The notes: generated from the sequence alone by a model not told the origin. Shown: positions 702-41,107, counted from the stretch's first letter. The stretch is 60,110 nt of DNA from Bacteroidota bacterium (GCA_034439655.1 JAWXAU010000163.1:1-60110), one strand, 5' to 3'. Program-made: numbers and translations.

Positions 702-756
702 CCCGCCGCGGCGAACCTACTTCCTACTTCCTACTTCCTACTTCCCACCGCGGCGG
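702..756. repeat. Heptamer tract (CCTACTT)x4 flanked by CCGCGGCG-core palindromes
   Basis: CCCGCCGCGGCGAA 702-715, CCTACTT x4 716-743, CCACCGCGGCGG 745-756. Confidence 0.9.
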
Positions 757-778
757 CTTTACTACTTTATACTTCTAC

Positions 779-1333
779 CTAGTTCCATCCCGGATCCAGA
801 GGAGCATCAGCAATAATCGAATACTTATCGCCCATACTTTTTAAAACGGTACGCCACAAAGCATCGGCAGGTGTATTAAATAAATATTGAAAATTTGCAG
901 GAGCTGTTATCCATGATTTGCTTTCGGTTTCTTTTTCTAATTGTCCGGGTGTCCAACCTGAGTATCCTATAAAAAATCTAAAATCTTTTTCTGTTACTTT
1001 TCCTTCACGAAATAATTGTAGCATCTGTTCGTGGTCGCCACCCCAAAATATGCCTTGCATAATCTCGGTACTGCCTTCAATTAAATGACCTACCGTATGT
1101 ATATAATGTAATGTATTAGTCTCGCACGGCCCTCCTTTGAACAATCCTGGATTGCAATTCGGGAAATCCTCCATGGCATCACGCATGCTTAGGTTAATGG
1201 GCTGGTTTAATACAAACCCAATGGTTCCGCGTTCGTTGTGCTCTACCAACAGTATTACACTGCGAATAAAATTAATGTCCATCATGAACGGTTCGCTCAA
1301 TAAAAGGACTCCTCTGTTTGGCATCGGTTTCAT
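779..1333 (-). CDS. YqgE/AlgH (DUF179) family protein
   Basis: LLLSEPFMMDINFIRSVILLVEHNERGTIGFVLNQP, FKGGP, FFIGYSGWTPGQLEKE, C-terminal DPGWN. Confidence 0.92.
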   Translation of the reverse strand: MKPMPNRGVLLLSEPFMMDINFIRSVILLVEHNERGTIGFVLNQPINLSMRDAMEDFPNCNPGLFKGGPCETNTLHYIHTVGHLIEGSTEIMQGIFWGGDHEQMLQLFREGKVTEKDFRFFIGYSGWTPGQLEKETESKSWITAPANFQYLFNTPADALWRTVLKSMGDKYSIIADAPLDPGWN

Positions 1334-1430
1334 ATTGCAAAATTGTTTTACTTTTCTTGTATATATAACGTAAATAAACGCTTTTTATTACATAATGGTT
1401 TGCAAGTGACAAATATTTTTCTAAACACTC

Positions 1431-2339
1431 TTAATTTTCTGAAGTGAGTTTGATAAAGATATCACTCATGGCTGGCATCTTCTCGCTAAATGACACCACT
1501 TCTACATGCTGCATCACTTGTTTCAAAAGTTCATTTCTACCCATGGGGCTTGGGTGTTTCAATATACATATATGACTGCCGTTCTCTATACGGTCATCTA
1601 CAATCTCTGTGTTTTGCGGGGTTTGCAAATTGTCGCCATTATAAACCAATTCATAAGTATTGGTACGAAACTGTTCTTTCACTTGTTGTAATTCTGCCTC
1701 TAATATTTTTTTAGATTTATTAATAAATATAATATAGTCACACATTTCTTCCACCGATTCCATGCGGTGTGTGGAGAATATAATAGAAGCTCCTTTGGCT
1801 TTAAGAGCAAGTATTTCGTCTTTAATTAGTTTTGCATTATTGGGATCGAAACCTGTAAAGGGTTCATCCAATATTATTAAAGTAGGTTCATGAATAACGG
1901 TACTAATAAATTGTACTTTTTGTTGCATTCCCTTTGAAAGTTCTTCCACCTTTTTCTTCCACCAAGTGCCAATATCGAACTTATCAACCCATACCTTACA
2001 ACGTGTAATAGCGTCTGCTCTGCTCAATCCCTTAAGCTGGGCTAGGTATAATAATTGTTCGCCCACTTCCATCTTCTTATACAATCCACGCTCTTCGGGC
2101 AAATAACCAATGCCTTCTATATGTTTGGGTTTGAGTGGTTGTCCTTCAAATAATACCAAACCACTATCGGCACGAGTAATTTGGGTAATGATGCGGATAA
2201 GCGAGGTTTTGCCTGCTCCATTAGGTCCAAGCAAACCTGTAATTTTTCCTTTGGGCATTTTCAAACTCACTTTGTCCAATGCCAAATGAGAGGCATATTG
2301 CTTACTCACATCTTGGGTTTCTATAATACTTATTTCCAT
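1431..2339 (-). CDS. ABC transporter ATP-binding protein (ABC-2/NatA-like)
   Basis: Walker A GPNGAGKT, signature LSKGMQQ, Walker B LIILDEP, H-loop STH. Confidence 0.92.
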   Translation of the reverse strand: MEISIIETQDVSKQYASHLALDKVSLKMPKGKITGLLGPNGAGKTSLIRIITQITRADSGLVLFEGQPLKPKHIEGIGYLPEERGLYKKMEVGEQLLYLAQLKGLSRADAITRCKVWVDKFDIGTWWKKKVEELSKGMQQKVQFISTVIHEPTLIILDEPFTGFDPNNAKLIKDEILALKAKGASIIFSTHRMESVEEMCDYIIFINKSKKILEAELQQVKEQFRTNTYELVYNGDNLQTPQNTEIVDDRIENGSHICILKHPSPMGRNELLKQVMQHVEVVSFSEKMPAMSDIFIKLTSEN

Positions 2340-2341
2340 TT

Positions 2342-3055
2342 TTATACTACTGAAATTACACTATCGGGAATGTCGCCCTCGTCTTTAAATTTAACCATCA
2401 ACCGTGCCAAGGTTGCAACATCTTTTTCGCAATAAGCTTTAATTCGATTCAAATCGCCCTCATTATAATATATACCACTTACCATACTTCCGTCTATATC
2501 ATCTTTGGGTGTTGGGATATCAAAAGCTGCGGCCAATAATTCTAAGGAAGTGTACGCTTTAAAGTCGCCAAATTTCCACAACTCCATCGTATCTAAATGG
2601 TTCAACTCCCAAGGCTTTTTGCCAGCAGTGTCTAATACAATGGGTAGCTTTACTTGGTTAATTACCATACGGCGTGACAAATAAGGAAAATCGAATTCTT
2701 TGCCATTATGGGCCAACAATAATTGCATCGGCGATTTCACAAATTTATCTAGGGCATCCGACACATCATTCAAAAGTTTCTTCTCGTCATGTCCACAATA
2801 AGATTTTATTTTAAGCTGATACGACTTACCCCAACGGCTGAACAGTCCCAACGAAACACATATAACTTTACCAAATTCGGCGTAGATTCCAGCACTATTA
2901 TAGCTTTCGTGTGGTAACTGATTGGGGTATTTGAGGGCAGATTTCTTGTCCCATAGTTTTTTCCAATGTTCGGGCAACTCTTGGTAATTGCGATATTGAG
3001 GCACAGTCTCAACATCCAAAGCCATCACATTTCCGAGGTCTAAATTTTCGAGCAT
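2342..3055 (-). CDS. PolB-like 3'-5' exonuclease domain protein
   Basis: ExoI LDVETVP, ExoII AHNGKEFDFPYL, ExoIII YCEKDV, plus HLDTMELWKFG. Confidence 0.88.
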   Translation of the reverse strand: MLENLDLGNVMALDVETVPQYRNYQELPEHWKKLWDKKSALKYPNQLPHESYNSAGIYAEFGKVICVSLGLFSRWGKSYQLKIKSYCGHDEKKLLNDVSDALDKFVKSPMQLLLAHNGKEFDFPYLSRRMVINQVKLPIVLDTAGKKPWELNHLDTMELWKFGDFKAYTSLELLAAAFDIPTPKDDIDGSMVSGIYYNEGDLNRIKAYCEKDVATLARLMVKFKDEGDIPDSVISVV

Positions 3056-3077
3056 ACTAATTTTGTTTTTAAAGTTT

Positions 3078-3108
3078 CAAACCTAATGCATATTGTATTG
3101 CTGTGCAA
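3078..3108 (-). promoter_or_regulatory. Bacteroidota housekeeping promoter for exonuclease-ABC ATPase
   Basis: Minus strand TTG-N20-TAGGTTTG matches the -33/-7 consensus. Confidence 0.6.
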
Positions 3109-3310
3109 CTTTGTGAAAAAATAATTATATCGGTGCATGGTTGCATGTCTTCACCAACCTTCAAAGCAATGTTTTATGAAATAGAAAAAAATTGTCGCAT
3201 TCAAAAACTCAAAATTGCAAATAATTATCTGCCATTATTTCCTATTATGGACTAAGGTGATTAATTTGCAAGCGTTTTCAAAAAACAATTATATAACAAT
3301 AAACAAAATT

Positions 3311-3916
3311 ATGCAAAAGTACAAAAAATTTATTCCTTGGGTAATCCTCGGTATTCTCATCATTTGGTGTGTGAGCGTTTACAATGGCTTTGTAAGTAAA
3401 GATGTAGTATTAGGCGAAAAGTGGGGAAAGGTACAAAGTGCTTATCAATTGCGTGCTGACAAAATTAAACAGTTAGTAAGTGTAGTAAAGGGATCTGCTA
3501 AGTTTGAGAAAGAAACATTATTGGGTGTGGTAGAAGCACGTGCAGGAATGGCCCGCCAAGCAACCTTCGACCCAACTAAAGGAACCGCTGAAGACTTTAA
3601 AAAATATGAAAGCATACAAAGAGACTTGATGTCGAACCCTAAAACAGGTTTCAATATTGTTGTCGAGCAATATCCGCAGCTTCGCACTACCGATCAATAC
3701 AAAGCTTTGATGTATGAAATAAGTGAAACTGAAAATATGATTAAAACAGAGCGTGATCAATTTACGATTGCTGTAAAAGAATACAATACTGCTACACGTC
3801 GTTTCCCTGGTAATTTATTTGCAAGTATATTTGGCTTTAGCCAAAAAGAATTTTTTGCAGCCGATACTGGTACCGACAAAGCCCCTATTGAGAGTCTGAA
3901 AGAACTTGAAAAATAA
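3311..3916 (+). CDS. lemA: LemA family protein
   Basis: N-terminal TM helix, WGKVQSAYQLRAD, VVEQYPQL, YNTATRRFPGNLFASIFGF. Start moved from the ORF-track start to ATG 3311. Confidence 0.9.
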   Translation: MQKYKKFIPWVILGILIIWCVSVYNGFVSKDVVLGEKWGKVQSAYQLRADKIKQLVSVVKGSAKFEKETLLGVVEARAGMARQATFDPTKGTAEDFKKYESIQRDLMSNPKTGFNIVVEQYPQLRTTDQYKALMYEISETENMIKTERDQFTIAVKEYNTATRRFPGNLFASIFGFSQKEFFAADTGTDKAPIESLKELEK

Positions 3917-3921
3917 TTAAG

Positions 3922-4350
3922 GTGGCATTCTTAAACCCAGAACAAGAACAGCAAATTGAAAAAGCTATAGGTTTGGCCGAAAACCAAACCTCTGGCGAAA
4001 TTCGTTTGCACACAGAACAGTTCTGCGACCTAGATGATACCTTGCAACGTGCATTGGAAGTGTTCTACGATTTGGAAATGGATAAAACCCAACAACAAAA
4101 CGGAATACTTATATATATAGCTTACGAGGACAAAAAAATGGCCATAGTAGGCGATGAAGGTATCAATAATGTAGTTCCTAAAAATTACTGGGATATTATT
4201 ATACAAGAAATGAAGTCCGATTTTGCTGCAGGTAATTTTGAAGAAGGAATCTGCAAAGCCGTGCATGAAGTAGGCGAAAAATTAAAACAATACTTCCCTT
4301 GGAACAGTGATGACAAAAACGAACTTTCTGACAAAATATCCAACCATTGA
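3922..4350 (+). CDS. TPM domain protein
   Basis: AENQTSGEIRLH, NGILIYIA...AIVGDEGIN; canonical position after lemA. Confidence 0.9.
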   Translation: MAFLNPEQEQQIEKAIGLAENQTSGEIRLHTEQFCDLDDTLQRALEVFYDLEMDKTQQQNGILIYIAYEDKKMAIVGDEGINNVVPKNYWDIIIQEMKSDFAAGNFEEGICKAVHEVGEKLKQYFPWNSDDKNELSDKISNH

Positions 4351-5102
4351 AATTTATATTTAAATATCTAAGACTATTAGTATTTGTTGGGATTTGCTTG
4401 CCATTATTTTCAAGTGCTCAAGCTCAAATTCCACCTAAATCAAATAGGTTGGTAAACGATTATGCAGGTGTATTAACTTCATCTCAAATTGTAGCACTCG
4501 AAAATGAAGCTGTAGCATTTGATAATAAAACATCCACACAAATTGCGATAGTAACTATCAAATCACTGGAAGGAAGAGATATAGCGGGTTACAGCCAGGA
4601 ACTTGCTGAAACTTGGGGCATAGGGCAACAAGGCAAAGACAATGGTATATTGATTTTAATAGCCGTTATAGACCACAAAACACGAATACATACAGGTCGC
4701 GGAATTACAGGCTATGCATCTGCTTCAAGATTGGGAGTTGAGCTAGAGGAAAAAGAAATGAATCCCCATTTCAAAAAAGGTGATTTTTATACAGGGCTTT
4801 CCAATGGACTCACCCAACTGGAAAAATTATTGGATGGGAAATATGAGGCAGTTCCCAAATCGAAAAGAAGCAAGCACTGGACTTCCTTTTTGGGAATGGC
4901 CATTATTATCATAATCATTATCATATCATCTATTCGTCGCAATCGTAAAGGTGGCGGGGGAAGTAGCGGGTTAGGTGCAGGAGGATTATTCTTCTTAGGT
5001 GGTAGCGGTGGTTGGGGCGGTGGAAGCAGTGGAGGAGGTGGTGGTTTCGGCGGCTTTGGAGGCGGAAGTTTCGGCGGAGGCGGTGCTAGTAGTAGTTGGT
5101 AA
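4347..5102 (+). CDS. TPM domain (YgcG-like) protein with Gly-rich tail
   Basis: Signal peptide, VNDYAGVL, WGIGQQGKDNGILIL, TM helix, terminal FGGFGGGSFGGGGASSSW. Confidence 0.92.
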   Translation: MKFIFKYLRLLVFVGICLPLFSSAQAQIPPKSNRLVNDYAGVLTSSQIVALENEAVAFDNKTSTQIAIVTIKSLEGRDIAGYSQELAETWGIGQQGKDNGILILIAVIDHKTRIHTGRGITGYASASRLGVELEEKEMNPHFKKGDFYTGLSNGLTQLEKLLDGKYEAVPKSKRSKHWTSFLGMAIIIIIIIISSIRRNRKGGGGSSGLGAGGLFFLGGSGGWGGGSSGGGGGFGGFGGGSFGGGGASSSW

Positions 5103-5235
5103 TAACCAATTACGGCATATATGTATTCAGAACATAATTCGGAATTTGATGCTCATGCTATACACCACCGCATGATGCAATAGGGTAGGATTATAATATG
5201 AAATATTCGAGCGGAGACATTTTTATTTACAAAGG

Positions 5236-5950
5236 TCGCCGCGGCGGGGCAGCAGAGCAGCAGCAAGGAAAATTTCACAAAATAGCATATTGCCAATCAG
5301 CAGAAATCAAATCCGATAAGCGAAGTCGATGCTGTCGTTCCGACCGTGGTTTTTGCAAGATGCTTAACCGAATTCGCCACGGCGAAACTTGGGTAAATAA
5401 AAAAGCTTTTTGCTTCGTTTTTGGCTTCAAAAATGAAGCCCCGATAGTTATCGGAGTTCGCGGCGACCGAGGAGTGGAAAAAAGTATCGCTAAAATATAT
5501 AATACAAGCATGTCTTGAGTACATGTATCCCTCAATTACGAATTACGAATCTTCAATTATGAATTATCTTCACATATTATACCGACACTCAATATATAAT
5601 AGTCCAAAAAAGGGGGACTAATCCCCCCGCATCCCGATAATTATCGGGATTAAGCGGGGCTTTCGGGATGTAGTTCGGCATTACCTTTCTAAAAACTAAG
5701 CCGCCACAGGCGGAGAACTATTATAGTTTAAGAACTGGTATTAAGCACCATGTAACCCTGAGCGGCCCGCCGCGGCAGGGAAGGGTGGCTTAGTTACAAG
5801 ACGAAAGTATAAAGTATATATAATACGACTTCCCATTTCTAAAAGTAAAGAATAAATAAATATTATTATTTTGTTCCCCTTACTTCCTACTTCCCTTCGC
5901 CGCGGCGAACCTACTTCCTACTTCCTTCGCCGCGGCGAACCCACTTCCTA
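5236..5950. repeat. Dense cluster of short palindromes, REP-like hairpins and heptamer tracts
   Basis: CGCCGCGGCG 5237, TTCGCCACGGCGAA ~5373, hairpin 5413-5438, CCGATAGTTATCGG 5441, heptamers 5534-5568, 20-bp palindrome 5631-5650, CCGCCACAGGCGG 5701, REP-like 5752-5786, TTCGCCGCGGCGAA 5896 and 5926. Confidence 0.85.
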
Positions 5951-7000
5951 CCTTATTCTATTCGCATCCAACCACCTCTGATACCTCCTCGCATTTGCAT
6001 TATGTTGTGAAAGTGTCTCTGCAAAATTGTGATACCCCAGCCTGGTTTCACTGGCACAATAAAATATAAAATCATTATTATCGGCATTCAACACGGCGTC
6101 TATGGCTTCTATGGTTGGGTTGCAGATGGGGCCCGGTGGAAGACCTCTGTGTGTATAGGTATTATAGGGGGATGAAGCCGATGCGTCTTTATGTTTATTA
6201 TATATACGTTTGAGGGTAAAATCATTTAAAGCAAATTTGATAGTTGGGTCCATTTCCAAATTCATTTTCTTATGCAATCGGTTAAACACCACACCTGCAA
6301 TAATAGGCATATCGGATTGTTTGTTCGTTTCTTTTATAACCAAAGATGCGATAGTAATTGCATCGCTTCTAGTAACACCTAATGCTTTTAATTTGCTTTC
6401 GCGTTCGCTATTCCAAAACCTATCATACTCATGCACCAATCGACCTATAACGCTGTCGGGCTTAGTATCCCAATTGATGAAATAGGTGTTTGGAATAAAT
6501 ATTTCAAACATATTTTTGGGCAAAATATTATACAATTTTAGCTTATTGCCCTTATATAACTCATTTGCTAAATCCTGGCTATCGGTTTCCAAATTGGCAA
6601 CTATGTTTTTTATAATATCCCCTACCCTATTGTGCGATTGTATAATAATTTTTACGGGTTCTTGCTTGCCTGAACGAAGTAACTGTATCAATTCTTTATT
6701 GCCCATCCCGTCAGCCAAAGTATAGCGACCTGGCTTAATGAGTTTATCATATTTCATGGCTTCCGCTATCCATTTAAAACTCCATGAATCTTGTAAAATT
6801 GGAGATAAGTCATCTAGCACCATATTATAGGTACTTCCTGATTTAATATATATAAACTGTTTGTCTTTAGCTAATTTTAAATTAGGTTTGTATAACACAA
6901 ACCAATACAAGAAACCCACCGCGGCAGCAATCACTACTATAATCGAACAAATGATAATAATGAGTTTTTTGGTACTCCGCTTTGTCTTCTTTTTAGCCAT
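5948..7000 (-). CDS. mltG: Endolytic transglycosylase MltG
   Basis: N-terminal TM, ITIASLVIKET, IAGVVFNRL, LEMDPT, SPYNTY, GLPPGPICNP, HNFAETLSQH. Confidence 0.93.
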   Translation of the reverse strand: MAKKKTKRSTKKLIIIICSIIVVIAAAVGFLYWFVLYKPNLKLAKDKQFIYIKSGSTYNMVLDDLSPILQDSWSFKWIAEAMKYDKLIKPGRYTLADGMGNKELIQLLRSGKQEPVKIIIQSHNRVGDIIKNIVANLETDSQDLANELYKGNKLKLYNILPKNMFEIFIPNTYFINWDTKPDSVIGRLVHEYDRFWNSERESKLKALGVTRSDAITIASLVIKETNKQSDMPIIAGVVFNRLHKKMNLEMDPTIKFALNDFTLKRIYNKHKDASASSPYNTYTHRGLPPGPICNPTIEAIDAVLNADNNDFIFYCASETRLGYHNFAETLSQHNANARRYQRWLDANRIR

Positions 7001-8978: not shown

Positions 8979-9284
8979 TTATTTATTACCAAACTTGGCC
9001 TGCCAATCTAGCATACCACCTAATAAATTCCGCACATTGGTAAAACCATTTTTCATCATAAAGTCACGGGCTGCGGCACTACGGCCACCAGCTTTGCAAT
9101 GAACAATCACTTCTTCATCTTTCCAATCGCCCAAGTCATCAATTACGGATTGTATAGTACCCAGCGGAACCAACTTCGCACCTATATTAAATTCTTCGTA
9201 TTCATAAGATTCACGCACATCTATAATGTTGAGTTTTTCACCACTATCCATGCGTTGCTTTAATTCTTCTGAGGTAATATCCAT
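8979..9284 (-). CDS. Single-domain rhodanese
   Basis: IIDVRE..EY, active-site loop HCKAGGRS, NLLGGMLDW. Confidence 0.92.
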   Translation of the reverse strand: MDITSEELKQRMDSGEKLNIIDVRESYEYEEFNIGAKLVPLGTIQSVIDDLGDWKDEEVIVHCKAGGRSAAARDFMMKNGFTNVRNLLGGMLDWQAKFGNK

Positions 9285-9305: not shown

Positions 9306-9371
9306 CCCGCCGCGGCGGGATTATTTTTTATTTTTCAAGTAGGCAGTTTGCTCACAACCCACAACTCACAA
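9306..9371. repeat. Perfect 14-bp palindrome CCCGCCGCGGCGGG plus heptamer tract CTCACAA/CCCACAA/CTCACAA
   Basis: Palindrome 9306-9319; heptamers 9351-9371 overlap the accD stop. Confidence 0.85.
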
Positions 9372-10298
9372 CTTACTTTTCACTTTCTCCTCCTCCTTTA
9401 CTTCTACTTTCACTTCCGTTTTTTCTTCTGATTCGATTACAGGAATTTCGGGTTCCATATCGGCAAGTAAATCCAATAATTGTATTAATTTACTTTGCAT
9501 TTCTGAACGGTTGATTATCATATCTAGAAAACCATGCTCCAATAAAAATTCAGAACTTTGGAAACCCTTCGGTAAATCTTTTCCTATTGCTTCTTTTATA
9601 ATTCGTGGTCCTGCAAATCCTATCAGGGCTTCTGGCTCTGCTATATTAAAATCGCCAAGCATGGCAAATGATGCAGTAACACCGCCCGTTGTGGGATCAG
9701 TTAAGTATGATATATAAGGAACTCCTGCTTTGGCAAGTAACGCAAGCTTTGCAGAAGTCTTCGCCATTTGCATCAGCGAAAAAGCAGCCTCCATCATCCT
9801 TGCTCCACCCGATTTGCTAATAACCATCACGGGTATTTTATGCTCACGTCCATAGTCAATAGCCCTAGCAATTTTTTCTCCCATCACCGAGCCCATGGAC
9901 CCGCCGATGAAAATAAAATCCATGCAAGCCACTACCAATTTATGCCGACCGATATCACCCACAGCTACACGCAATGCATCGTTCAAGCCCGTTTTACTAA
10001 TGGTGTCCTTCAGCCTACTTTCGTAACTCTTAGTATCATTAAATTTGAGGGGGTCAGTTGGTAATATATTCGAGAACAACTCCGTGAAATTCTCACCGAA
10101 CAATACCTCAAAATATTCTGCTGAACCAATCTTTGTATGGTAGTTACAATTAGGACAAACCCATTTATTATTGATATGGTCTACTACGTCCATCACTTTT
10201 TTACAGCGAGAACACTTATGCCACAAGCCCTCGGGCGTGGATTTTTTATCTTTGGTAGAAGTGGTAATTCCTTCTTTAACGCGTTTAAACCAACTCAT
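9366..10298 (-). CDS. accD: Acetyl-CoA carboxylase carboxyltransferase beta subunit
   Basis: PEGLWHKC..C...C..C zinc finger, GGSMGSVMGEKI, SGGARMMEA, DPTTGGVTASFAMLGD, FLLEHGFLD. Confidence 0.96.
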   Translation of the reverse strand: MSWFKRVKEGITTSTKDKKSTPEGLWHKCSRCKKVMDVVDHINNKWVCPNCNYHTKIGSAEYFEVLFGENFTELFSNILPTDPLKFNDTKSYESRLKDTISKTGLNDALRVAVGDIGRHKLVVACMDFIFIGGSMGSVMGEKIARAIDYGREHKIPVMVISKSGGARMMEAAFSLMQMAKTSAKLALLAKAGVPYISYLTDPTTGGVTASFAMLGDFNIAEPEALIGFAGPRIIKEAIGKDLPKGFQSSEFLLEHGFLDMIINRSEMQSKLIQLLDLLADMEPEIPVIESEEKTEVKVEVKEEEKVKSKL

Positions 10299-10977: not shown

Positions 10978-11012
10978 CCATTTATCATTTACCTTTTACC
11001 ATTAATCATTAA
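10978..11012. repeat. Five-unit degenerate heptamer tract overlapping the GH3 stop
   Basis: CCATTTA TCATTTA CCTTTTA CCATTAA TCATTAA. Confidence 0.8.
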
Positions 11013-16086: not shown

Positions 16087-16149
16087 GTGTAGTTTGTATT
16101 AAGTATTATATATATTGAAACGTCGTATTATAATCTCCCCCTCATTAAC

Positions 16150-16163
16150 CCCGCGGCGGCGGG
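16150..16163. repeat. CCCGC-GGCG-GCGGG palindrome between ftsA and ftsZ
   Basis: 14-bp CCCG-N6-CGGG with flanks ATTAAC and AACCATTA, matching the 41078 copy. Confidence 0.8.
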
Positions 16164-28250: not shown

Positions 28251-28256
28251 TTGAAA

Positions 28257-28277
28257 AATTATGAGTGATGAATTATG
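28257..28277. repeat. Heptamer tract on the 3' side of the four-helix-bundle gene
   Basis: AATTATG AGTGATG AATTATG; inverted relative to the 28656-28676 tract. Confidence 0.75.
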
Positions 28278-28325
28278 AATATATAGATATTATTTTTTCA
28301 AGTTGTTCTTAGTAGTTAAAATGGA

Positions 28326-28658
28326 TCAGCGAATAATTTTCAAAAGCTCGCCCGCAGTGTTATTGCTTGTTTCATAGGGGGTGTTGTTTATAAAGTCTGT
28401 GGCTAGAATTAAATCCAACCAATAAATGGTTTCATCGCATTCCTTCTGAGCAATAGCCAACTTATGAATAAAATCTAATTTAGATTCTGCATTCTGAGCT
28501 TTTCTTACCAAGGCTCCAATAGCGGTGCCGCTTCTGAGTAATTGCCTACTCATCACAAACTCCTTCTTTTCAGTCGTTATGTACTTATATAATTTCACAA
28601 TCTCAATCGCAAATTCAAATGATTTTACTAGTAATATATTTTTCTTAATTTTTTCCAT
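28326..28658 (-). CDS. Four-helix-bundle protein (23S rRNA intervening-sequence protein / TIGR02436-like), apparently truncated by an in-frame TGA
   Basis: KSFEFAIEIVKLY, QLLRSGTAIGA, AESKLDFIHKLAIAQKECDETIYWL. The frame continues past TGA as SILTTKNNLKK to TAA at 28290. Confidence 0.88.
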   Translation of the reverse strand: MEKIKKNILLVKSFEFAIEIVKLYKYITTEKKEFVMSRQLLRSGTAIGALVRKAQNAESKLDFIHKLAIAQKECDETIYWLDLILATDFINNTPYETSNNTAGELLKIIR

Positions 28659-28690
28659 TCATCATTTATAATTTATCCCGCTGCGGCGGG
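28656..28690. repeat. Heptamer tract plus CCCGCTGCGGCGGG palindrome on the 5' side of the four-helix-bundle gene
   Basis: CATTCAT CATTTAT AATTTAT, then the 14-bp palindrome at 28677-28690. Confidence 0.8.
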
Positions 28691-28695
28691 CATCA

Positions 28696-32770: not shown

Positions 32771-34975
32771 ATGAAACTCAAAGTCATTTTATATATTGTC
32801 ATTACCCTCGCTGCAAATAAATTGTTCTCTCAAAGCAGTTATATATTACAAAACAAAGTTCCGTTACCCAAAGAATTCAACCTAAGTGTGGAAGAGCGTT
32901 TGGACAAAGCACGAGAGCATTTAAAAAGTTTAAACATTAAATACAATGATGAGCTACTGAAAGAAGAGATTATCTTGTTTCAAGGATATATTAGAAGTGG
33001 CCAAGTATTGTTCAACGACACCATAAGTTATCATATTGATAAAATTGCCCACAAGTTTTTTGAACGCGACAAGTCCCTTACAAATAATATAAAAATATAC
33101 TTATGTAAAAATGATTATGCAGTCAATTTTTCCGCTCCCGATGGAGTCATTTTTATATCTACTGGGTTTATAGCTCAGTGTATGGATGAGTCGCAACTTG
33201 CCTTTGCTATTGCCAGAGAAATTGCAAAATACCAAGATGGTTATATCCAAAGTTTAGATGTTACCTTGCTAAATAAAGGTGGCGACGTAAAATCCTATAA
33301 TACCTACTTCCATGAGTTTACCGATCAGATTTTGGTAGAAACCGCCAATACCCATGAATATGATAAAACAGCAATGGAACTGACTAAAAATGCAGGTTTC
33401 GATATGGGTGAGGCTTTGTTGTACTTCGACATATTGCACAATGCAGAATTACCTTTTGAATATGTTAAATTTGAGAAATCATTTTTCGAAAGTGCAAATT
33501 TTACTATTCCTGCTGAATTCGATATAGACACCACGATGACCGTAACCCATAGCGAAGAAGTGCAACAGTCAGAATCGCCAATATATGATGACTACGGTAA
33601 ACGTAAAGATGTTTTAGGTTATTATAAAGCAGCTATTAGCCGCAAACATACTATTGATGTTGCAACGTTTAGTTATATGATAAAACTTGCTAAACTGGAA
33701 ACATGTAAGCAAGAATTGCTTCGTAAAGAATATAATGATGCGTTGTATAATTCATACTGTATTATCAAACAAGATTCTGGAAATATTTTAGCTAAAGAAA
33801 TTTTTGTGCAGGCACTTTTTGGGTTTTCTATCAATAAGAACGAAAGTATAGAGCAATACCTCAAAGGGCTTTGGGCAGAAAAAAAATTGGATAAACTTGC
33901 AGAATATGTGTTCAAAAAAGTTGGAATAACCCCTGTAGATACTTGTATAAAAATACTATATAAACTTAAAGCCAACAATCCAAACAATTTGGTGGTATTA
34001 GCTCTTCGTAAGTGTTGGGAATGGGCTGCCCAAAATCCAAAATCAACCTACCTAAATAGTTTTCGCGATTATTTGATGGCATATTTGAGCAGTAATTCAA
34101 ATATGAAAAGTGAGTATTTTGTGTTTTCTAGGAACGACATAAAACCCGATGAGCCTAATAAAGTTGAAGAACCTATAATTAGTAAATATGCTAAAATAAA
34201 GAAACCCAAGGTGCTGGAAAATGCCTACCGAATTATTCCTGACGCATACACACAAACTGCCATGATGGATATAACTTCTGCATTTATTTTCGAACGGGAA
34301 TATAAAAATGCTGTTTCCAATTTTGAATATGTTTTTAGCGACATGGAAACGGAATCCAAAAAGAAAATTAAGAAAAATGATAAAATATTACAGTCTTCTC
34401 TCGATTTCGATTATCTCAATATGCTGAAAAACGAGCAGGACCCCGTAAGAGAGATAATACCCAAAAAGGAAAGAGTAAAAGTAGAAAGCCTCTTTAAGAA
34501 ATATGACAAATTACTTGGTGGCAAAGTTCTGAATATGAGTGTTGAAGAAACAAAACTGTATAATGTACAAATATGGAACGACGAGGTGCTCATCAATGAT
34601 TATATATATGAAATTGGCAACAACTTATTGGGGTACAGAACAAATTATTCAGCTACCCACTTCTATGCTTATCAGTTATCTTTGGCAAAAAAAACTCCCT
34701 ATCTATTTACAGGCAAGTTTACAAAAAAGATATACCATAAAGAATCAAATACCGATGGCGATGATTGCAATAGCTGTAGCATTACTAATTGTTTGATACT
34801 TGTAGATGTATACAATGTAATTGTACCAAGTAAAAAGTTCTTATTTGAATATTATATTATCGATTTCAAAACTGGTCGTAAAATATATCAAAATGCGAAT
34901 GATGACTATATTCCCTATAAAAGCGACATGCTTAAAGCCCATATATATGACATCCTTTATCAATTATCGTATTAA
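32771..34975 (+). CDS. Secreted M48-peptidase-like protein lacking the HExxH histidines
   Basis: NFSAPDGVIFISTGFIAQCMDESQLAFAIAREIAKY aligns to M48 NAF..P.G.I....GL......EAQLAFVLAHEIAH. Confidence 0.7.
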   Translation: MKLKVILYIVITLAANKLFSQSSYILQNKVPLPKEFNLSVEERLDKAREHLKSLNIKYNDELLKEEIILFQGYIRSGQVLFNDTISYHIDKIAHKFFERDKSLTNNIKIYLCKNDYAVNFSAPDGVIFISTGFIAQCMDESQLAFAIAREIAKYQDGYIQSLDVTLLNKGGDVKSYNTYFHEFTDQILVETANTHEYDKTAMELTKNAGFDMGEALLYFDILHNAELPFEYVKFEKSFFESANFTIPAEFDIDTTMTVTHSEEVQQSESPIYDDYGKRKDVLGYYKAAISRKHTIDVATFSYMIKLAKLETCKQELLRKEYNDALYNSYCIIKQDSGNILAKEIFVQALFGFSINKNESIEQYLKGLWAEKKLDKLAEYVFKKVGITPVDTCIKILYKLKANNPNNLVVLALRKCWEWAAQNPKSTYLNSFRDYLMAYLSSNSNMKSEYFVFSRNDIKPDEPNKVEEPIISKYAKIKKPKVLENAYRIIPDAYTQTAMMDITSAFIFEREYKNAVSNFEYVFSDMETESKKKIKKNDKILQSSLDFDYLNMLKNEQDPVREIIPKKERVKVESLFKKYDKLLGGKVLNMSVEETKLYNVQIWNDEVLINDYIYEIGNNLLGYRTNYSATHFYAYQLSLAKKTPYLFTGKFTKKIYHKESNTDGDDCNSCSITNCLILVDVYNVIVPSKKFLFEYYIIDFKTGRKIYQNANDDYIPYKSDMLKAHIYDILYQLSY

Positions 34976-34978
34976 GCT

Positions 34979-35698
34979 ATGAACAGTTTTTTTTATACAA
35001 TTATTTTTCTACTATTCTGCTTAAGCATCACAGCTCAAGTACCCGGATATCTTGGAAAAAAGAATAGTATCGGTATTGGGGCACAATGGTTCCCATCTTA
35101 CAAAAACTACGGATATACCAATACATCTTATACCCCAAAATGGGACAGTTCTTTTACACTAAGTAATTTTAGATATAAATCTGCCTTTAATGCATTTTAC
35201 GAACGTGTAATCGACCGTCATATTTCAATGAATTTTAATTACAACTACCAACGTGGAGGCTATTATTCTCTAGAAGAAAAGGAACTCATCGACAGTGCTG
35301 GGAATATCACTATAACACAATCATTTCAGGGCTATAATGTGGTTCAACATCGATATGAATTGTTATTCAAATTCTTTTTTAGGAACAGTGGGGGACTTGC
35401 TCCTCTTGGCTCATATTTAGGCGTTGGTTTAAATTATAGTATTGTGAAAGGTTGGACTGTGGGCGATGAAGACAGTACCCTGATTAAAAAATCACTAACG
35501 GCAATGTCCCTCACCTGGGGTAAAACCAGAATACTTGGAGATCATATTATAATAGACTATGGAATCCGCTGTACACCATTTTATTTCAATGGGGAGGTAA
35601 ACGTCATCAATCAACCTGTTAGAAATTTGAAACCGGCCTCTTATATGTTTGGCAGGAACATACTCTTTGCTTATATCAATTTTGGAATATTGATATAA
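34979..35698 (+). CDS. Hypothetical outer-membrane beta-barrel protein
   Basis: Signal peptide, QVPGYLGKK start, alternating aromatic strands, terminal INFGILI. Confidence 0.7.
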   Translation: MNSFFYTIIFLLFCLSITAQVPGYLGKKNSIGIGAQWFPSYKNYGYTNTSYTPKWDSSFTLSNFRYKSAFNAFYERVIDRHISMNFNYNYQRGGYYSLEEKELIDSAGNITITQSFQGYNVVQHRYELLFKFFFRNSGGLAPLGSYLGVGLNYSIVKGWTVGDEDSTLIKKSLTAMSLTWGKTRILGDHIIIDYGIRCTPFYFNGEVNVINQPVRNLKPASYMFGRNILFAYINFGILI

Positions 35699-35720
35699 TT
35701 CAAATAGATATACCATCGCA

Positions 35721-36593
35721 TTAATGAACCAAAGAAATACCAACCGAAGTAATATATACATTCGAGCCTTGATTCTTATTCAATAAAGGCATCAACGATG
35801 TTTCCGCCCATATACGAATAAACTTGTAAGCCACTCTAATTGTTGCTTTCACATTAAATGTAGATTGATTTAAACTGCTCCAGCGGTTTATATAATAGTT
35901 GATTCCGTCTTTGCTATACTCCACATTCTGTTTCGAAGCAAAACGCCAACATCCAATTACTCCCATAGCCATTTGAAAAGCATTTTCTGGACTAATTTTA
36001 TGGGGCCCTACTGCAAATCTTACCATTACAGGCACGTTTAATGAATGGTTGATAATCCTATTTTTGGTATACTGCAATAAAGAATCGTACATAGGGGTGA
36101 GCATACTATTGCTCTTGTTAATATGCAACAATACGGATTCATCGCTCAAGCGGATAGCAGAATGTTCATAGCCGATGCCCGACACAAAACTCACGCGTTT
36201 TTTGTCATTTGATGTGATATTTTCAAACAAATTTATTTTCCAATTAAATGATTTCCCTATATCATTATTTAGATATTTCATATCGTTCTTTAAAGTTATT
36301 TGCCCCATAGTTGAGCCTACAAAATTGAATCCCAAATCAAGTCCATCCCATACACTTCTGTACACATGCTTATCGCGTTCCATACTAAAGAAATATTTAT
36401 TTAAAGTATCGAGCAATACACTGCCTTTATTCTCTATTACAATTGTTGTGTCATATATTAATTTTCCATCTTTTGATATCACTACTCTCTTTTTATATAC
36501 TTCCTTCTTGTTATAAGAAGTATCAGCCTGTGCAACCGTTTTATGATATAGGAAAATGCTGCCTAAAATTAGTATTATATTAAAGTATCTCAT
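35721..36593 (-). CDS. Outer-membrane beta-barrel protein in the ECF operon
   Basis: Signal peptide, WDGLDLGFN, LNVPVMVRF, terminal SVGISL. Confidence 0.75.
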   Translation of the reverse strand: MRYFNIILILGSIFLYHKTVAQADTSYNKKEVYKKRVVISKDGKLIYDTTIVIENKGSVLLDTLNKYFFSMERDKHVYRSVWDGLDLGFNFVGSTMGQITLKNDMKYLNNDIGKSFNWKINLFENITSNDKKRVSFVSGIGYEHSAIRLSDESVLLHINKSNSMLTPMYDSLLQYTKNRIINHSLNVPVMVRFAVGPHKISPENAFQMAMGVIGCWRFASKQNVEYSKDGINYYINRWSSLNQSTFNVKATIRVAYKFIRIWAETSLMPLLNKNQGSNVYITSVGISLVH

Positions 36594-36644
36594 CTTGTTT
36601 TATATTATATATTTATACCAATATTTATTTTTACTACTGGTTAT

Positions 36645-37916
36645 TTAAAATCCTCCGAAAAAAACCGTATTACCTATTATCACTGGCTTTCCGTTTATGT
36701 TTTGAGGAATGTTTTTACTCACATTTACTTTGAACTTGGTATTTTTGTTTACCCAACTGCTTGCTCTTTGTGCTACTTGATCCCAATTAACTTTAGCAGC
36801 TCCGTTTCCACTTACTTGCACTATTCTTTGGTCTTGTTCAGCAGGCATTTGTTGGAGTTCTTGCTCTATTAATTTTTGTTTAATTCTATTTTCTAAAGCC
36901 ATATCTTCTTCACTATTGGCAGTATTTTCCAATCTCACCACATTAAAATCAATCGGTTTATTGGTATCGACTGCCACTATGGTATTTGAATTATCATGCA
37001 ACTTATCATTTGCTTTATTAACCAAACTTGCATGGTGCATCAAAGGCTTACGAAGTGAGGTGCTGCTGGCAAAGGTTGCATTTGTAGAATTTGATAATGG
37101 TGTCTCTATCACTATCTGCTCCGACGGTTTTGCCACTTCAATTTGGGCCGTAGAAACTGATAAATTGGCATCCATATTCCCCATATTGTTATAAGCAAAA
37201 TAAATTACCAAACAAGCTGCCACCGCTGCGGACAGGTATGGAACCACTTGGGCATATAAAGGTCTGATTGCTTTAATATAGAGTGTGCGTTTATCTTTAA
37301 AAACTACTTTCTTATCGGGCAATAAATAAGTAAGTTTATATAATTCAAAATCTTTTTGATAAGCGGGATTCGATGATACAAAAGCCAATAAATCTTTTTC
37401 TTGAGCTATAGTAAGTTGGCGTTCGAAATACAATATCATCCATTCATCAGCATTTTTTTTATTGATACCGGCGGTTGTGATGATAGCAATCTTTTTGAGA
37501 ACTTGCTTATGCAGTTTATTTAAAACTATAGTTTCATCGGCTCCTATTTTTGCCAATTTATATAAGTTGCGGTCACGTTTGAATAGTGGATTCTGTTTGA
37601 TAAAATCTGCGAGTTCAATTTTTTCTACCTGTGATAATTCTCCTTCGATTTCTTTGGTTAAGTAAAGTTCAATATTATTTCGTGTGACCCTGCCCATAGG
37701 TTCAGAGCATATTTTTTTGAGCTGGTGTTTGAAATCGTTTCCCATCCCCTGTTCAGGAAAATCAATTCGCTTGCTTTGTCCAAAACTGTCAAACTCTTCT
37801 TTCTGTAGCGGATTAAGTTCCAAAAAAGCAAACAGTTCTTTCTGCTCGCTATGACTTAATATGCCATCATAAAAGTCGACAATGTATATAATATAATTTT
37901 CTAAAGTTATTGTCAT
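36645..37916 (-). CDS. Putative anti-sigma factor with three tandem N-terminal helical repeats and one TM segment
   Basis: Repeats of the form Y.D/E.EL...E..EL..F...NP; TM YLSAAVAACLVIYF; directly downstream of the ECF sigma. Confidence 0.72.
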   Translation of the reverse strand: MTITLENYIIYIVDFYDGILSHSEQKELFAFLELNPLQKEEFDSFGQSKRIDFPEQGMGNDFKHQLKKICSEPMGRVTRNNIELYLTKEIEGELSQVEKIELADFIKQNPLFKRDRNLYKLAKIGADETIVLNKLHKQVLKKIAIITTAGINKKNADEWMILYFERQLTIAQEKDLLAFVSSNPAYQKDFELYKLTYLLPDKKVVFKDKRTLYIKAIRPLYAQVVPYLSAAVAACLVIYFAYNNMGNMDANLSVSTAQIEVAKPSEQIVIETPLSNSTNATFASSTSLRKPLMHHASLVNKANDKLHDNSNTIVAVDTNKPIDFNVVRLENTANSEEDMALENRIKQKLIEQELQQMPAEQDQRIVQVSGNGAAKVNWDQVAQRASSWVNKNTKFKVNVSKNIPQNINGKPVIIGNTVFFGGF

Positions 37917-37931
37917 TCGGGTATATTTATA

Positions 37932-38420
37932 TTATAATAGTTCTTCAAATTTTCCCAATTTTTCTTTCAGTACTTGTCTGCCACGGAATATATATACTTT
38001 TACTTGCGACAGGCTAAGGTTGGTCATCTCGCTTATTTGCTCATAACTATAGCCCTCATAATCCCTGAGTAATATTACAGAACGTTGCACATCGCTCAGT
38101 TCTGATACAGCTTGATCGATAATCTCCTTTACACCTGTGTAATGGCTGGGTGTATGCGTATGGTCGAATTCATTCACCTCGTCCCAATTAGCTTTCTTTT
38201 TTTCACGCCGTATTAAGTCTATCATGGTATGATATGCTGTAGTATATAAATACGATTTGCATTTGTCAAACTCTACAATGTCGTTTTTCAACCACATTTT
38301 TTCAAACGAGTCTTGAACAATGTCCTTTGCTTTATCCTCATCTCTGATGTTTTTAAGGATAAACCGATAGACACCGTCTGAATACAAATCGACACATTTG
38401 TTAAATTCTGTCGCAGTCAT
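37932..38420 (-). CDS. ECF RNA polymerase sigma factor
   Basis: AKDIVQDSFEKMW, VILLRDYEGYSYEQI, VKVYIFRGR. Confidence 0.93.
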   Translation of the reverse strand: MTATEFNKCVDLYSDGVYRFILKNIRDEDKAKDIVQDSFEKMWLKNDIVEFDKCKSYLYTTAYHTMIDLIRREKKKANWDEVNEFDHTHTPSHYTGVKEIIDQAVSELSDVQRSVILLRDYEGYSYEQISEMTNLSLSQVKVYIFRGRQVLKEKLGKFEELL

Positions 38421-38513
38421 TTAGGGTTGGTGATTTTGACTTATGGTACGCCACTAAAATTTCTTTGTTACAAAAATAAAAGATTTTTTTGTGCATTCGG
38501 TTATTTTTGCCCC

Positions 38514-39533
38514 ATGCTGCTACAGGTAAATATACCATTGCAATCATTGAACACCTTTGGAATCAATGCTTTTGCTAAATATTTTGTTGAAATAAATACT
38601 ATAGAATCTGCTCAAGAATTCTTTGCCGAAAAGAAATTTGACACAGAAAAGAAACTCATACTGGGCGGTGGCAGCAATATCCTCTTCACGAAAGATTATG
38701 ATGGTATCGTTATCAAAAATAATATTATCGGCATTGAAAAAATACAAGAAGACGAAAGCCATGTATTGCTAAAAGCCAATGCTGGCAGCACTTGGCATCA
38801 ATTAGTATTACACGCTGTTGCAAATAATTGGGGAGGGGTCGAAAACCTTTCACTAATTCCGGGCCTCTGCGGTGCCGCACCCATGCAAAATATTGGTGCC
38901 TACGGTGTGGAGCTCAAAGATGTATTTGAAAGTTTGGAAGCATTGAATATCGAAACCAACCAAATACAAACATTCACACACGCCGATTGTGAGTTTGGCT
39001 ACCGTGAGAGCGTGTTCAAAAACAAACTTAAAAACCAGTTCCTCATCCTTTCCATTACTTTAAAACTAAACAAGAAACCAATATATAATACTTCCTACGG
39101 TGCTATCCAAACCACCTTGGAATATATGGGCATTATTGAACCTACCGTCAAATCCATCAGCGATGCGGTTATCCAAATTCGCAGCAGCAAACTCCCTAAC
39201 CCTGCCGAATTGGGCAATGCAGGTAGCTTTTTCAAAAACCCTGAGATACCCATAGGACAATACGAAAAATTACAACTGCAATACCCTTTATTACCCAATT
39301 ATAAAGGCTCAATACCCAACCATCTAAAAGTGCCCGCAGGTTGGCTTATTGAGCAGTGCGGCTGGAAAGGGAAAGTGGTAGGCAATACAGGTTCACACAA
39401 GTTCCAAGCACTCGTATTGGTAAACTATGGCAATGCTACAGGTGCCGAAATATATAAGCTCGCCCAAGACATCATTGCCAGCGTAAAAGATAAATTTGAT
39501 ATTGTTTTAAAAGCCGAGGTGAATTTGGAATAA
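38514..39533 (+). CDS. murB: UDP-N-acetylenolpyruvoylglucosamine reductase
   Basis: NTFGI, GGGSNILF, GAAPMQNIGAYGVE, GNAGSFFKNP, QALVLVN. ATG 38514 lies 4 nt after TATTTTTG. Confidence 0.97.
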   Translation: MLLQVNIPLQSLNTFGINAFAKYFVEINTIESAQEFFAEKKFDTEKKLILGGGSNILFTKDYDGIVIKNNIIGIEKIQEDESHVLLKANAGSTWHQLVLHAVANNWGGVENLSLIPGLCGAAPMQNIGAYGVELKDVFESLEALNIETNQIQTFTHADCEFGYRESVFKNKLKNQFLILSITLKLNKKPIYNTSYGAIQTTLEYMGIIEPTVKSISDAVIQIRSSKLPNPAELGNAGSFFKNPEIPIGQYEKLQLQYPLLPNYKGSIPNHLKVPAGWLIEQCGWKGKVVGNTGSHKFQALVLVNYGNATGAEIYKLAQDIIASVKDKFDIVLKAEVNLE

Positions 39534-39672
39534 GGAAGCCGCCTAGGTCTCTCTTTGCACTTGACTTCCTCTCTGAGCCTCTTGCAGAGGACGTAGAGGC
39601 TACATCGCATAAACAGACGCTGAGTCCCTGCCACGCTCATACTTCGCTGCAGGAGACTTAGCTGCGAAGGAC

Positions 39673-39745
39673 CTTGCCCAAGATATTATAGCAAGCGTAA
39701 AAAAAAAATTGATATTGATTTAAAGCTGAGGTGAATTTGGAGTAG
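39673..39745 (+). pseudogene. Degenerate second copy of the murB 3' end
   Basis: Aligns codon-by-codon with 39459-39533; mostly synonymous changes plus two 1-bp deletions. Confidence 0.88.
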
Positions 39746-39768
39746 AGACCCTTCCAATGCAACGTCTA
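39742..39768. repeat. Degenerate GTAG-type REP-like element
   Basis: GTAGAGACCCTTCCAATGCAACGTCTA resembles the GTAGAGACGTTGCA..TGCAACGTCT REP type. GTAGAGAC recurs at 47820. Confidence 0.55.
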
Positions 39769-39839
39769 TTTTCGAATACCAATTTAGTGAACTTATTATA
39801 AATCATAATCATTACCTTTGCAAAAATAAACAATAGCTT

Positions 39840-40841
39840 ATGTTGCGTTCAACCTTACTTATTTTCACTATCATATTTTTAAATATGAATACTTCAATAG
39901 GTCAAGTAAACCTCTCAAAAGGTCTGGTAGCTTACTTCCCCTTCGAAGGAAACAGCTTCGATTCTATCAGCCCCAACGCTACCAATAATAATACCGGAGC
40001 CTTGTTAACTCAAAATCGTCAAGGTAGAAAAAGTAAAGCAATGGATTTCCTAGCTTCCAATGAAAACTATATAGACGTTGGAACAAATCTTTCCTATTTT
40101 CCTGTTAGTATTTCTGTATGGATTATGCCCCGATACTGCCCCAATATCGGAGTTATTTTCTCTAATGAATATAATTTATACCAATGGACAACTACCGCAA
40201 TGGAACTTATGCAATTGGCTGATGGCACCATTCGTTTTGGTATGGGAAATTCAAGCAATGGACAATCATATAAATATATTGAATCTGCAAATCAAGTGAA
40301 ATACGATGGTTCCTGGTATCATATCGTGGCAACCTGCGATCAAAATTACAACTGTGAGATTTATATTGATAAAGTACGAGATAGAACAGGCAAATTGTCA
40401 TTGGGCAATTTCGTTACCTGCATCAACAATGCAAATATAGGAGCACGACCTATAGCAGCCTTAGTACAAGGAGGTATGCAGGGCCATTTTTATAATGGAG
40501 TAATGGATGAATTACGTATTTACAATAGAGTGCTTGACACCAGCGATATCGATGCGTTATTCAATCTAGATTCCTCCACACTAGCCGCTGTCCCTTATAT
40601 TGAGACAGCCGAACCAAATATCAATATAACTAAATTAAATGGAATTATAAATATCCTATCTGATCTGCAAATAGAAAAGGTGAAAATATATGATATGATG
40701 GGTAGACAAGTTTACACAAAAACAGTAAATGCTCTTGCTACACAAATAACTGATATGTCAAACCAAAACGGGAACAACTGCTACATTATCGAAATCCTTT
40801 GCAAAAACAATCTGCCCGTTCGCCAAAAAATAATACTGTAG
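39840..40841 (+). CDS. LamG-like jellyroll protein with T9SS CTD
   Basis: GLVAYFPFEGN, WYHIVAT, YNGVMDELRIYNRVL; CTD IYDMMGRQV...YIIEI...KIIL; TACCTTTG at 39813. Confidence 0.87.
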   Translation: MLRSTLLIFTIIFLNMNTSIGQVNLSKGLVAYFPFEGNSFDSISPNATNNNTGALLTQNRQGRKSKAMDFLASNENYIDVGTNLSYFPVSISVWIMPRYCPNIGVIFSNEYNLYQWTTTAMELMQLADGTIRFGMGNSSNGQSYKYIESANQVKYDGSWYHIVATCDQNYNCEIYIDKVRDRTGKLSLGNFVTCINNANIGARPIAALVQGGMQGHFYNGVMDELRIYNRVLDTSDIDALFNLDSSTLAAVPYIETAEPNINITKLNGIINILSDLQIEKVKIYDMMGRQVYTKTVNALATQITDMSNQNGNNCYIIEILCKNNLPVRQKIIL

Positions 40842-40904
40842 TACACATAATGATGCACCCGATGGGGTTTACAAAATATTTTCCTTATGCAGGCCGGTTG
40901 CAAT

Positions 40905-40918
40905 CCGATAATTATCGG
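40905..40918. repeat. Perfect palindrome CCGATAATTATCGG
   Basis: Same family as 5631; sits within CAATCCG...CGGATTG. Confidence 0.8.
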
Positions 40919-41013
40919 GACGGATTGAGTTTCGGTATAAGTTTAAGAATTGCTATTATCCAGACGCGAGCACAGATGGAAGTCGGGTTGAAAAAAACAA
41001 CACAATCTAAAAC

Positions 41014-41046
41014 AAAAAAAGGAGCCTAGTAGTAAAACTAGACCCC
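41014..41046 (-). terminator. Intrinsic terminator of the large T9SS gene
   Basis: Minus strand GGGGTCTAGT/ACTAGGCTCC 10-bp stem with G-U pairs, then T7. Confidence 0.7.
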
Positions 41047-41069
41047 TTTATAATTATTATTGTGGCCAA

Positions 41070-41107
41070 CTATTAACCCCGCCAAGACGGGAGCCATTAA
41101 CCATTAA
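41070..41107. repeat. Heptamer tract (CTATTAA..CCATTAA CCATTAA) interrupted by CCCG-CCAAGA-CGGG
   Basis: Immediately after the 41109 stop; same flanks as the ftsA-ftsZ copy. Confidence 0.75.

Follow-up and report, generated by a model that had tools for sequence, protein, structure and literature searches.

The DNA analysed here, referred to as the window, is a 60,110-nt contig (C163) of a Bacteroidota draft genome (G000; 3.50 Mb, 205 contigs, 36.8% GC), and it carries several copies of a 14-bp GC-rich palindrome, YYCGCCGCGGCGRR, hereafter the 14-mer, whose 10-nt core is CGCCGCGGCG. The original prediction, made from the sequence alone, had listed exact cores at 432, 704, 5237, 5898, 5928 and 9308, all of which are present, as well as variants near 746, 5373, 5766, 16150 and 28677, which we recovered as one-mismatch matches at 746, 5375, 5768, 16149/16152 and 28679. 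Altogether, the window holds 6 exact cores and 12 matches with at most one mismatch compared to 0.19 expected, a number reached in 0 of 100 shuffles. The predicted GC content of about 35% agrees with the 34–42% observed along the window. The placement within the Bacteroidota is based on a type IX secretion system (T9SS)-type tail encoded at 430–552 and on the relatives found. No transposase was found within the window, as anticipated, and neither was an Rfam family or a tRNA.

The leftmost exact copy, TA-CGCCGCGGCG-GA (430–443), lies within an open reading frame (ORF 1–552, plus strand) that codes for a T9SS C-terminal sorting domain, the encoded residues being ...KKVYAAADAV...; three paralogous tails encoded at other loci of the genome are shorter by 9 nt at exactly this site. 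The following exact copy (702–715, CC-core-AA) lies in a spacer between convergent genes and adjoins the left end of a CCTACTT tract. This tract (716–745, plus strand) comprises 4.3 units with 100% matches in Tandem Repeats Finder (TRF) and has a palindrome copy on each side, the right-hand one being the decayed copy CACCGCGGCG (744–757), which differs by a G>A transition. An exact copy with GT-core-GG (5235–5248) lies in the repeat-filled spacer 5103–5947, inside ORF 5198–5518, and is followed by the decayed copies TTCGCCACGGCGAA (5373–5386) and CCCGCCGCGGCAGG (5766–5779). ORF 5198–5518 (106 codons) is annotated as a gene in a public record of a metagenome-assembled genome, has no Pfam match and consists almost entirely of repeat (two palindromes and the CCGATA repeat described below); it is probably spurious and not a gene. 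Further along, a CCTACTT-type tract (5881–5951, plus strand) harbors two exact copies of TTCGCCGCGGCGAA (5896–5909 and 5926–5939) within a 30-nt higher-order repeat present 2.3 times, indicating that palindrome and tract were duplicated together locally. The copy at 5896 shifts the phase of the tract by 3 mod 7.

The exact copy CCCGCCGCGGCGGG (9306–9319) is embedded in an AT-rich ATTTTTA-type tract between a rhodanese gene (8979–9284, minus strand) and an accD-like gene (9366–10298, minus strand), and the corresponding spacers of the three sister species (G001, G002 and G003) do not contain it, at a divergence too high to define an exact junction. Two sites share a CCATTAA-type flank, as had been proposed: the degenerate copy CCCCGCGGCGGCGGG (16148–16163; flank CATTAAC...AACCATTA), which belongs to a CCATTAA-tract subfamily, and the site at 41078 (ATTAAC...CCATTAA). 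The latter, originally counted as a further variant, turned out to hold only the look-alike hairpin CCCCGCCAAGACGGGA (41078–41093), which is not matched at one mismatch or fewer and represents either a copy that has decayed heavily or a distinct apex. The decayed copy CCCGCTGCGGCGGG (28677–28690) marks the edge of a cassette with a four-helix-bundle (S23p-like) gene. This segment (28252–28695) contains the S23p/Avd-like gene of 110 residues, heptamer arms and the decayed palindrome between two cell-division genes, and is missing at this position in all three sister species, where the gap measures 6 nt (G003), 110 nt (G002) and 299 nt (G001). TRF located 7-bp tracts adjoining copies at 716–745 (CCTACTT), 5534–5566 (AATTACG), 5881–5951, 9351–9373 (CTCACAA), 10978–11003 and 41094–41108 (CCATTAA), bearing out the description of heptamer tracts whose unit changes from locus to locus.

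The 14-mer across the genome

A genome-wide census returned 178 exact cores in the 3.5-Mb genome, and CGCCGCGGCG is the sole GC-rich word among its commonest 10-nt palindromes. Complementarity between the flanks persists at position 1 (93% of copies) and position 2 (92%), and lies at background (19–39%) beyond, so that the unit is a 14-nt perfect palindrome. The two outer pairs are C:G or T:A with the pyrimidine always on the 5' side, and the symmetric copies comprise 59 with TT..AA, 58 with CC..GG, 30 with TC..GA and 5 with CT..AG, a co-variation indicating that pairing matters for the element. No fixed GTAG or CGTC tag follows the 14-mer, pairing ends beyond flank position 2, and no internal segment separates terminal inverted repeats, setting it apart from MITEs (miniature inverted-repeat transposable elements). 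One-mismatch cores number 184 compared to 14 for a reversed control word. Overall, about 180 intact and about 250 decayed copies are present. Transitions account for 68% of the single-base variants, with a hot spot at the inner CpG cytosine of CCGCGG, where C>T is the commonest step (44 of 157 single changes); this pattern suggests decay, possibly via cytosine methylation.

When genes were called crudely (86% coding), 162 of the 178 exact cores (91%) proved intergenic, and the remaining 16 fell in called ORFs, several of which are doubtful. The original prediction had placed most intergenic copies just downstream of stop codons. This bias proved to be weak: core density per kb is 0.49 in convergent, 0.39 in tandem and 0.21 in divergent spacers, in tandem spacers a core lies a median of 80 nt beyond the preceding stop and 110 nt before the next start, and the copy at 432 lies within a coding sequence. 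Seven is by a wide margin the commonest tandem period of the genome, with 509 arrays compared to 119–312 for each of the periods 6, 8, 9 and 10. These arrays form many unit families that vary by locus, with the identical unit found in both orientations; a stop is no more than 15 nt away for 26% of the arrays, and a start for 28%.

The cores are strongly concentrated at these arrays: 62 of 178 (35%) are in or beside arrays of period 7, 14 or 21, which cover 0.48% of the genome, corresponding to an approximately 70-fold concentration. The notion of heptamer tracts as landing sites is thus sustained, but not as the sole targets, as hairpin apices and coding loops are used as well. Outside tracts, the 14-mer is often found at the tip of unrelated stems, such as gacgtcatgctg-14-mer-cagcatgacgtc or aaatgttt-14-mer-aaacatt. 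Taxa of the class that are free of the palindrome have heptamer tracts as well: other genera of the family hold 31 of them per 100 kb and other families 18, showing that the tracts are older and more widely distributed than the palindrome. Two further short motifs were noted in the same surroundings: GGCGTCAGC / GCTGACGCC, with 30 and 23 copies that are almost exclusively intergenic, beside tract hairpins and palindrome copies (for example at C150:88, C160:14859 and C126:16374), and GTGCCATNCGGC, found repeatedly at the point where heptamer arrays fold back.

Turnover between species and the search for an enzyme

The four species of the genus contain 178, 12, 41 and 82 cores, whereas 15 other genera of the family contain 0–1, except for one with 13, where the control word amounts to 11; among 30 relatives the palindrome is confined to the genus. 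Spacers cannot be aligned between the sister species, because their coding DNA is only about 80% identical. We considered all 41 G002 copies with their flanks, of which 23 have a collinear interval in G000. A core was present in 3 of these intervals, with a single copy appearing orthologous, and the other 20 sister copies lacked a counterpart.

Coding sequences reveal the insertions directly. The ligA product reads GGSPRRNQKF in G000 and GGI---TKKF in 9 relatives (64–85% identity), corresponding to a gain of 9 nt relative to G001 and G002 at the DNA level. A gain of 9 nt was likewise found in nnr (relative to G001, G002 and G003), in a variable loop of aroA (relative to G002), in three T9SS tails including the one at window position 432 (relative to paralogs) and, in the reverse direction, in one G002 gene relative to G000. 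The insertions in ligA, nnr and aroA are in frame, and no tract homology surrounds them. As a control, in chrA (chromate transporter, C181:4213 in G000) the exact 10-nt core belongs to the native coding sequence (GYRRGGP), and the counterparts of this gene in G001–G003 have near-identical words with no indel. These in-frame gains, together with the species turnover, uphold the proposal that the GC palindrome is an inserted element.

The tracts yield a measure of the inserted length. Where the unit is identical to the left and right of a copy, the tract phase shifts by 3 mod 7 in 30 of 34 cases (2 in three, 4 in one), including all 23 CC..GG copies of such tracts, which fits a net gain of 10 nt. 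Where the flanks are periodic, exact 3-nt direct repeats border 24 of 75 copies; where they are not, 4 of 52 (0.8 expected). Insertion of 14 nt plus a 3-nt target duplication is contradicted by the non-periodic flanks and ruled out by the nnr and ligA junctions with their length-invariant relatives. In the simplest reading, the 14-mer would replace 4–5 nt, for a net gain of 9–10 nt and no regular target duplication. The idea of a transposon footprint or solo terminus was likewise discarded, as no longer elements with YYCGCCG...CGGCGRR ends were found. Looking up the exact protein of one flanking gene yielded no variants, the contigs obtained all being 100% identical to the window, and a metagenome scan with YceG found no relatives. 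In a contig scan for two cores spaced by 12–42 nt, chance matches in high-GC genomes dominated among the matches listed.

Candidates for a mobilizing factor were sought as well. A REP-associated tyrosine transposase (RAYT) or IS200-type gene flanked by copies, as considered in the original prediction, was found neither in G000 nor in the sister species (REP, repetitive extragenic palindrome), and all 17 genes with copies on both sides are ordinary housekeeping genes, none of them mobility-like. A link to four-helix-bundle (S23p) genes, also envisaged there, did not materialize, with only about 5 such genes in the genome. Capture of a 14-bp duplex by Ku–LigD end-joining cannot be general, since Ku is present in G000 and absent from the three sister species, which carry species-specific copies. 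The Ku gene (PF02735) lies at C159:43377–43913 in G000, and 2 of 27 other relatives searched have Ku. The only Y1/IS200-type trace in G000 is located at C153:5591–5695 (L252 2077–2286, minus strand; ...KRTFREEYIDFLNEFEVDYDERFIF...), behind a T9SS-tailed gene.

In a wider survey of 400 genomes of the phylum, the core exceeded the control word by far in scattered lineages: 257 to 1 in G090, which belongs to another class, 56 to 3 in G379, 41 to 1 in G172, 23 to 1 in G201, 16 to 0 in G291 and 12 to 0 in G179. In G090, 249 copies are YY..RR 14-mers, nearly all of them TTCGCCGCGGCGAA; most are located outside tracts, and the tip of a hairpin is a frequent position. In G172, the flanks differ from those of the 14-mer. 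The best Y1 gene of G090 (L232 1396–1860, minus strand, 154 residues) is part of a REPtron-like arrangement (L232, G090:C41, 1100–2420) with units of about 170 nt on both sides and GTAG hairpins (gatcctctacgaggatc, cctcgtagagg). The composite repeats around this gene also carry the 14-mer, at 1190, 2190 and 2316, while three other strong Y1 loci of this genome have at most one variant copy. This locus alone hints that an HUH enzyme may be linked to the 14-mer, and we treat it as a lead only; it may equally reflect a secondary insertion that was duplicated with the unit.

The CCGATA palindrome and other repeats

A second palindrome, CCGATANNTATCGG, had been assigned to the same system as the GC palindrome. 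Its four sites in the window are real (5441, 5634, 10918 and 40905; 4 compared to 0.06 expected), but the family is heterogeneous and mostly the centre of a MITE, and thus does not form one system with the GC palindrome. Genome-wide, 191 copies were counted, 89 of them at contig edges. The 129 copies with the centre AT (CCGATAATTATCGG) are the middle of a MITE of about 150 nt with long conserved flanks, a copy of which, not belonging to the 14-mer family, lies at 5580–5750 (plus strand; centre at 5634–5647) and a partial or diverged copy at 40889–40950 (centre at 40905–40918). This MITE, with at least 129 copies, is found at many contig ends and thus fragments the assembly. The 29 copies with a GC centre occur in varied contexts.

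Copies with a GT or AC centre belong to a different dispersed repeat. At 5441–5454, CCGATAGTTATCGG is part of its ...GGAAGCC-CCGATAGTTATCGG-AGTTCGCGGCGAGCGA... arrangement, and the same repeat (...TATCGCTCGCCGCGAACT-CCGATAACTATCGG-GGCTTCC...) is present at 5420–5470, at the end of the window (60060–60110) and at the ends of contigs C8, C11, C38, C40, C59 and C75. A possible further copy of the GC palindrome at 60102 is accounted for by this contig-end repeat, which may be the end of an unassembled insertion sequence or operon copy.

Apart from repeats, G000 is depleted of several short words. GCGC occurs 49 times where about 4322 are expected (0.01), and CCGG (0.37), GATC (0.40), CAGCTG (0.16) and CATATG (0.19) are depleted as well, which looks like restriction-type word avoidance; none of these words is contained in the palindrome.

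Interpretation and relation to known systems

Taken together, the 14-mer is an insertional micro-repeat. Insertion and a site preference for heptamer tracts are supported, and mobilization in trans or from a template, which the original prediction had also inferred, is a possible reading. We see about an even chance that the family of YYCGCCGCGGCGRR is selfish non-coding DNA that spreads by copying into new sites. A trans-acting factor could recognize the 14-mer as a small hairpin or duplex, and the 14-mer would be written into single-stranded or structure-prone DNA in the course of replication or repair. The preferred sites are heptanucleotide tracts that already existed and the tips of unrelated hairpins. 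The only concrete candidate, and a weak one, would be an HUH/Y1-type enzyme not encoded beside the copies. Such a factor may already have been lost from G000, leaving the copies to decay by CpG transitions.

Several observations weigh against spread of this kind. By itself, the 14-mer makes a weak hairpin, whose −3.3 to −4.6 kcal/mol fall in the shuffle range, and its junctions are known from coding alignments and tract phase only. Searches of G000 and the sister species identified no enzyme: PF01797 (Y1/RAYT) has no match in G000, the highest-copy genome of the genus, while most relatives have 1–10; the trace on C153 is a 35-residue C-terminal remnant (tblastn) with no 14-mer copy nearby; no copy lies closer than 1.5 kb to any of 8 strong Y1 loci in the sister species; and relatives without the palindrome commonly have Y1 genes. 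The subfamilies, moreover, follow tract types, with CC..GG in CAGTAGN tracts, as homology-driven copying likewise predicts.

This last point leads to an enzyme-free alternative, which we regard as rather doubtful, where template switching or ectopic gene conversion between similar heptamer tracts or hairpins spreads the palindrome with no dedicated recognition factor. The joint duplication of tract and palindrome as higher-order units of 30–58 nt would follow from such copying, and a second core within 120 nt of 29 of the 178 cores, the missing regular target duplication outside periodic flanks and the lack of a cognate transposase in our searches are in line with it. It does not account, however, for the ligA, nnr and aroA insertions with no surrounding tract homology, for the sharp 14-nt border with compensatory outer pairs, or for the amplification of the identical 14-mer, not just any palindrome, in another class and mostly outside tracts. 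A functional role, in which the palindrome binds a protein or forms a hairpin in transcripts as terminator or stabilizer and is selected near gene ends, would agree with the intergenic location of most copies, their highest density in convergent spacers and the co-varying outer pairs. Its copies would then hardly be expected to differ in position between species, to decay so freely that one-mismatch copies are as many as exact ones, or to lie in essential genes. An intrinsic terminator is a stable GC hairpin with a run of T in sense with the upstream gene, whereas the 14-mer is a weak hairpin whose flank profiles contain no T-run; the window copy at 9306, the only one to score as terminator-like, does so on the strand opposite to the neighboring genes. 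The weak hairpin, missing T-run and unconserved positions thus make a regulatory or terminator role unlikely. Finally, the original prediction had offered a methylation-linked origin like that of the highly iterated palindrome 1 (HIP1). A CCGCGG methyltransferase and biased repair, of this or the very-short-patch type, would enrich the word. The CCGCGG within the core, the C>T hot spot at its CpG, which fits 5-methylcytosine, and the strong avoidance of GCGC would be compatible with this. CCGCGG is nevertheless not enriched outside the family (397 sites, about 220 of them in the family word; overall observed/expected 1.2), filled and empty sites differ by 9–10-nt indels rather than by substitutions, and copies are nearly absent from coding DNA, so that we consider this origin very improbable.

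Returning to copying into new sites, a bolder form can be stated tentatively, as a possibility with well under an even chance: YYCGCCGCGGCGRR would be a true 14-bp mobile element, below all described mobile DNA in size, of which a trans-acting sequence-specific enzyme, different from a classical REP-flanked RAYT, places copies at the tips of hairpins, in heptamer tracts and in coding loops that tolerate them, replacing 4–5 nt. An enzyme conserved in, or horizontally exchanged among, Bacteroidota classes would explain the identical expansions of 178 copies here and 249 elsewhere. If actively mobilized, the 14-mer would lower the size limit of mobile DNA and point to a novel enzyme recognizing a very small DNA hairpin, and would offer a handle on the nature of similar micro-repeats and on their attraction to heptanucleotide tracts. 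LigA, AroA and Nnr illustrate that essential proteins can gain residues from such elements without lethality. On the practical side, palindrome repeats and the companion MITE break metagenome assemblies and create spurious ORF calls, as at 5198–5518.

Among known systems, the 14-mer comes nearest to three. Small dispersed repeats (SDRs) are very short, gene-less and hairpin-forming, reside in heptanucleotide tandem repeats and hairpins, and are absent at the same sites in related genomes; eight families, SDR1–8, with lengths of 21–27 nt were reportedly described by Elhai and colleagues in 2008 for Nostoc punctiforme and relatives. To our knowledge, no transposase has been assigned to them. The 14-mer is similarly short and gene-less, occupies heptamer tracts and hairpins and is present or absent between related genomes. 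It differs from the SDRs in being a perfect palindrome of 14 nt, outside their length range, in its occurrence in Bacteroidota, in two classes of the phylum, and not in cyanobacteria, in its net gain of 9–10 nt and in its in-frame insertions into housekeeping genes.

REPs are imperfect hairpins of 20–40 nt with a GTAG or CGTC tag, usually in inverted pairs (REP doublets forming hairpins, REPINs); GTAG REPs flank a RAYT gene, and CGTC REPs occur without a dedicated transposase (PMC3116915, PMC3733652). The 14-mer shares with them the extragenic palindromes in hundreds of copies, the lineage specificity, the decaying subfamilies and the occurrence of some copies in genes. It is, however, perfect, only 14 nt long and tagless, with no intact Y1 gene in G000 and no copies flanking the Y1 genes of the sisters. 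Rickettsia palindromic elements (RPEs), of about 100–150 bp, are known from alpha-proteobacterial endosymbionts (PMC10969869, PMC1779305) and resemble the 14-mer in inserting in frame into coding sequences, including essential genes, as a short peptide in a tolerant loop, whereas the 14-mer adds only 9 nt (3 residues).

The heptamer tracts and the GC-rich palindrome each have a further parallel. Heptanucleotide tandem repeats are known as short tandemly repeated repetitive (STRR) sequences of heterocystous cyanobacteria, as TAACTGA repeats (PMC4679880) and as GGGAATC repeats (PMC4692102), and arrays have been reported in a few Bacteroidetes. A third of the 14-mer copies reside in tracts of this kind, intergenic 7-nt arrays with locus-specific units, but those papers (PMC4679880, PMC4692102) describe arrays only, an inserted palindrome being absent from their descriptions. 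HIP1 (GCGATCGC) of cyanobacteria, within which SDR5 inserts precisely (PMC4390886), is like the 14-mer an over-represented GC-rich palindrome with a methylase-type site. It is dense in coding DNA and kept by substitution-level processes (PMC4390886, PMC5861425), in contrast to the 91% intergenic 14-mer, which arrives by insertion at sites not common to the species. The 14-mer is thus distinguished from SDRs, REPs/REPINs and RPEs by a perfect 14-nt symmetry with neither tag nor cognate transposase, a net gain of just 9–10 nt and an occurrence in different classes of the Bacteroidota.

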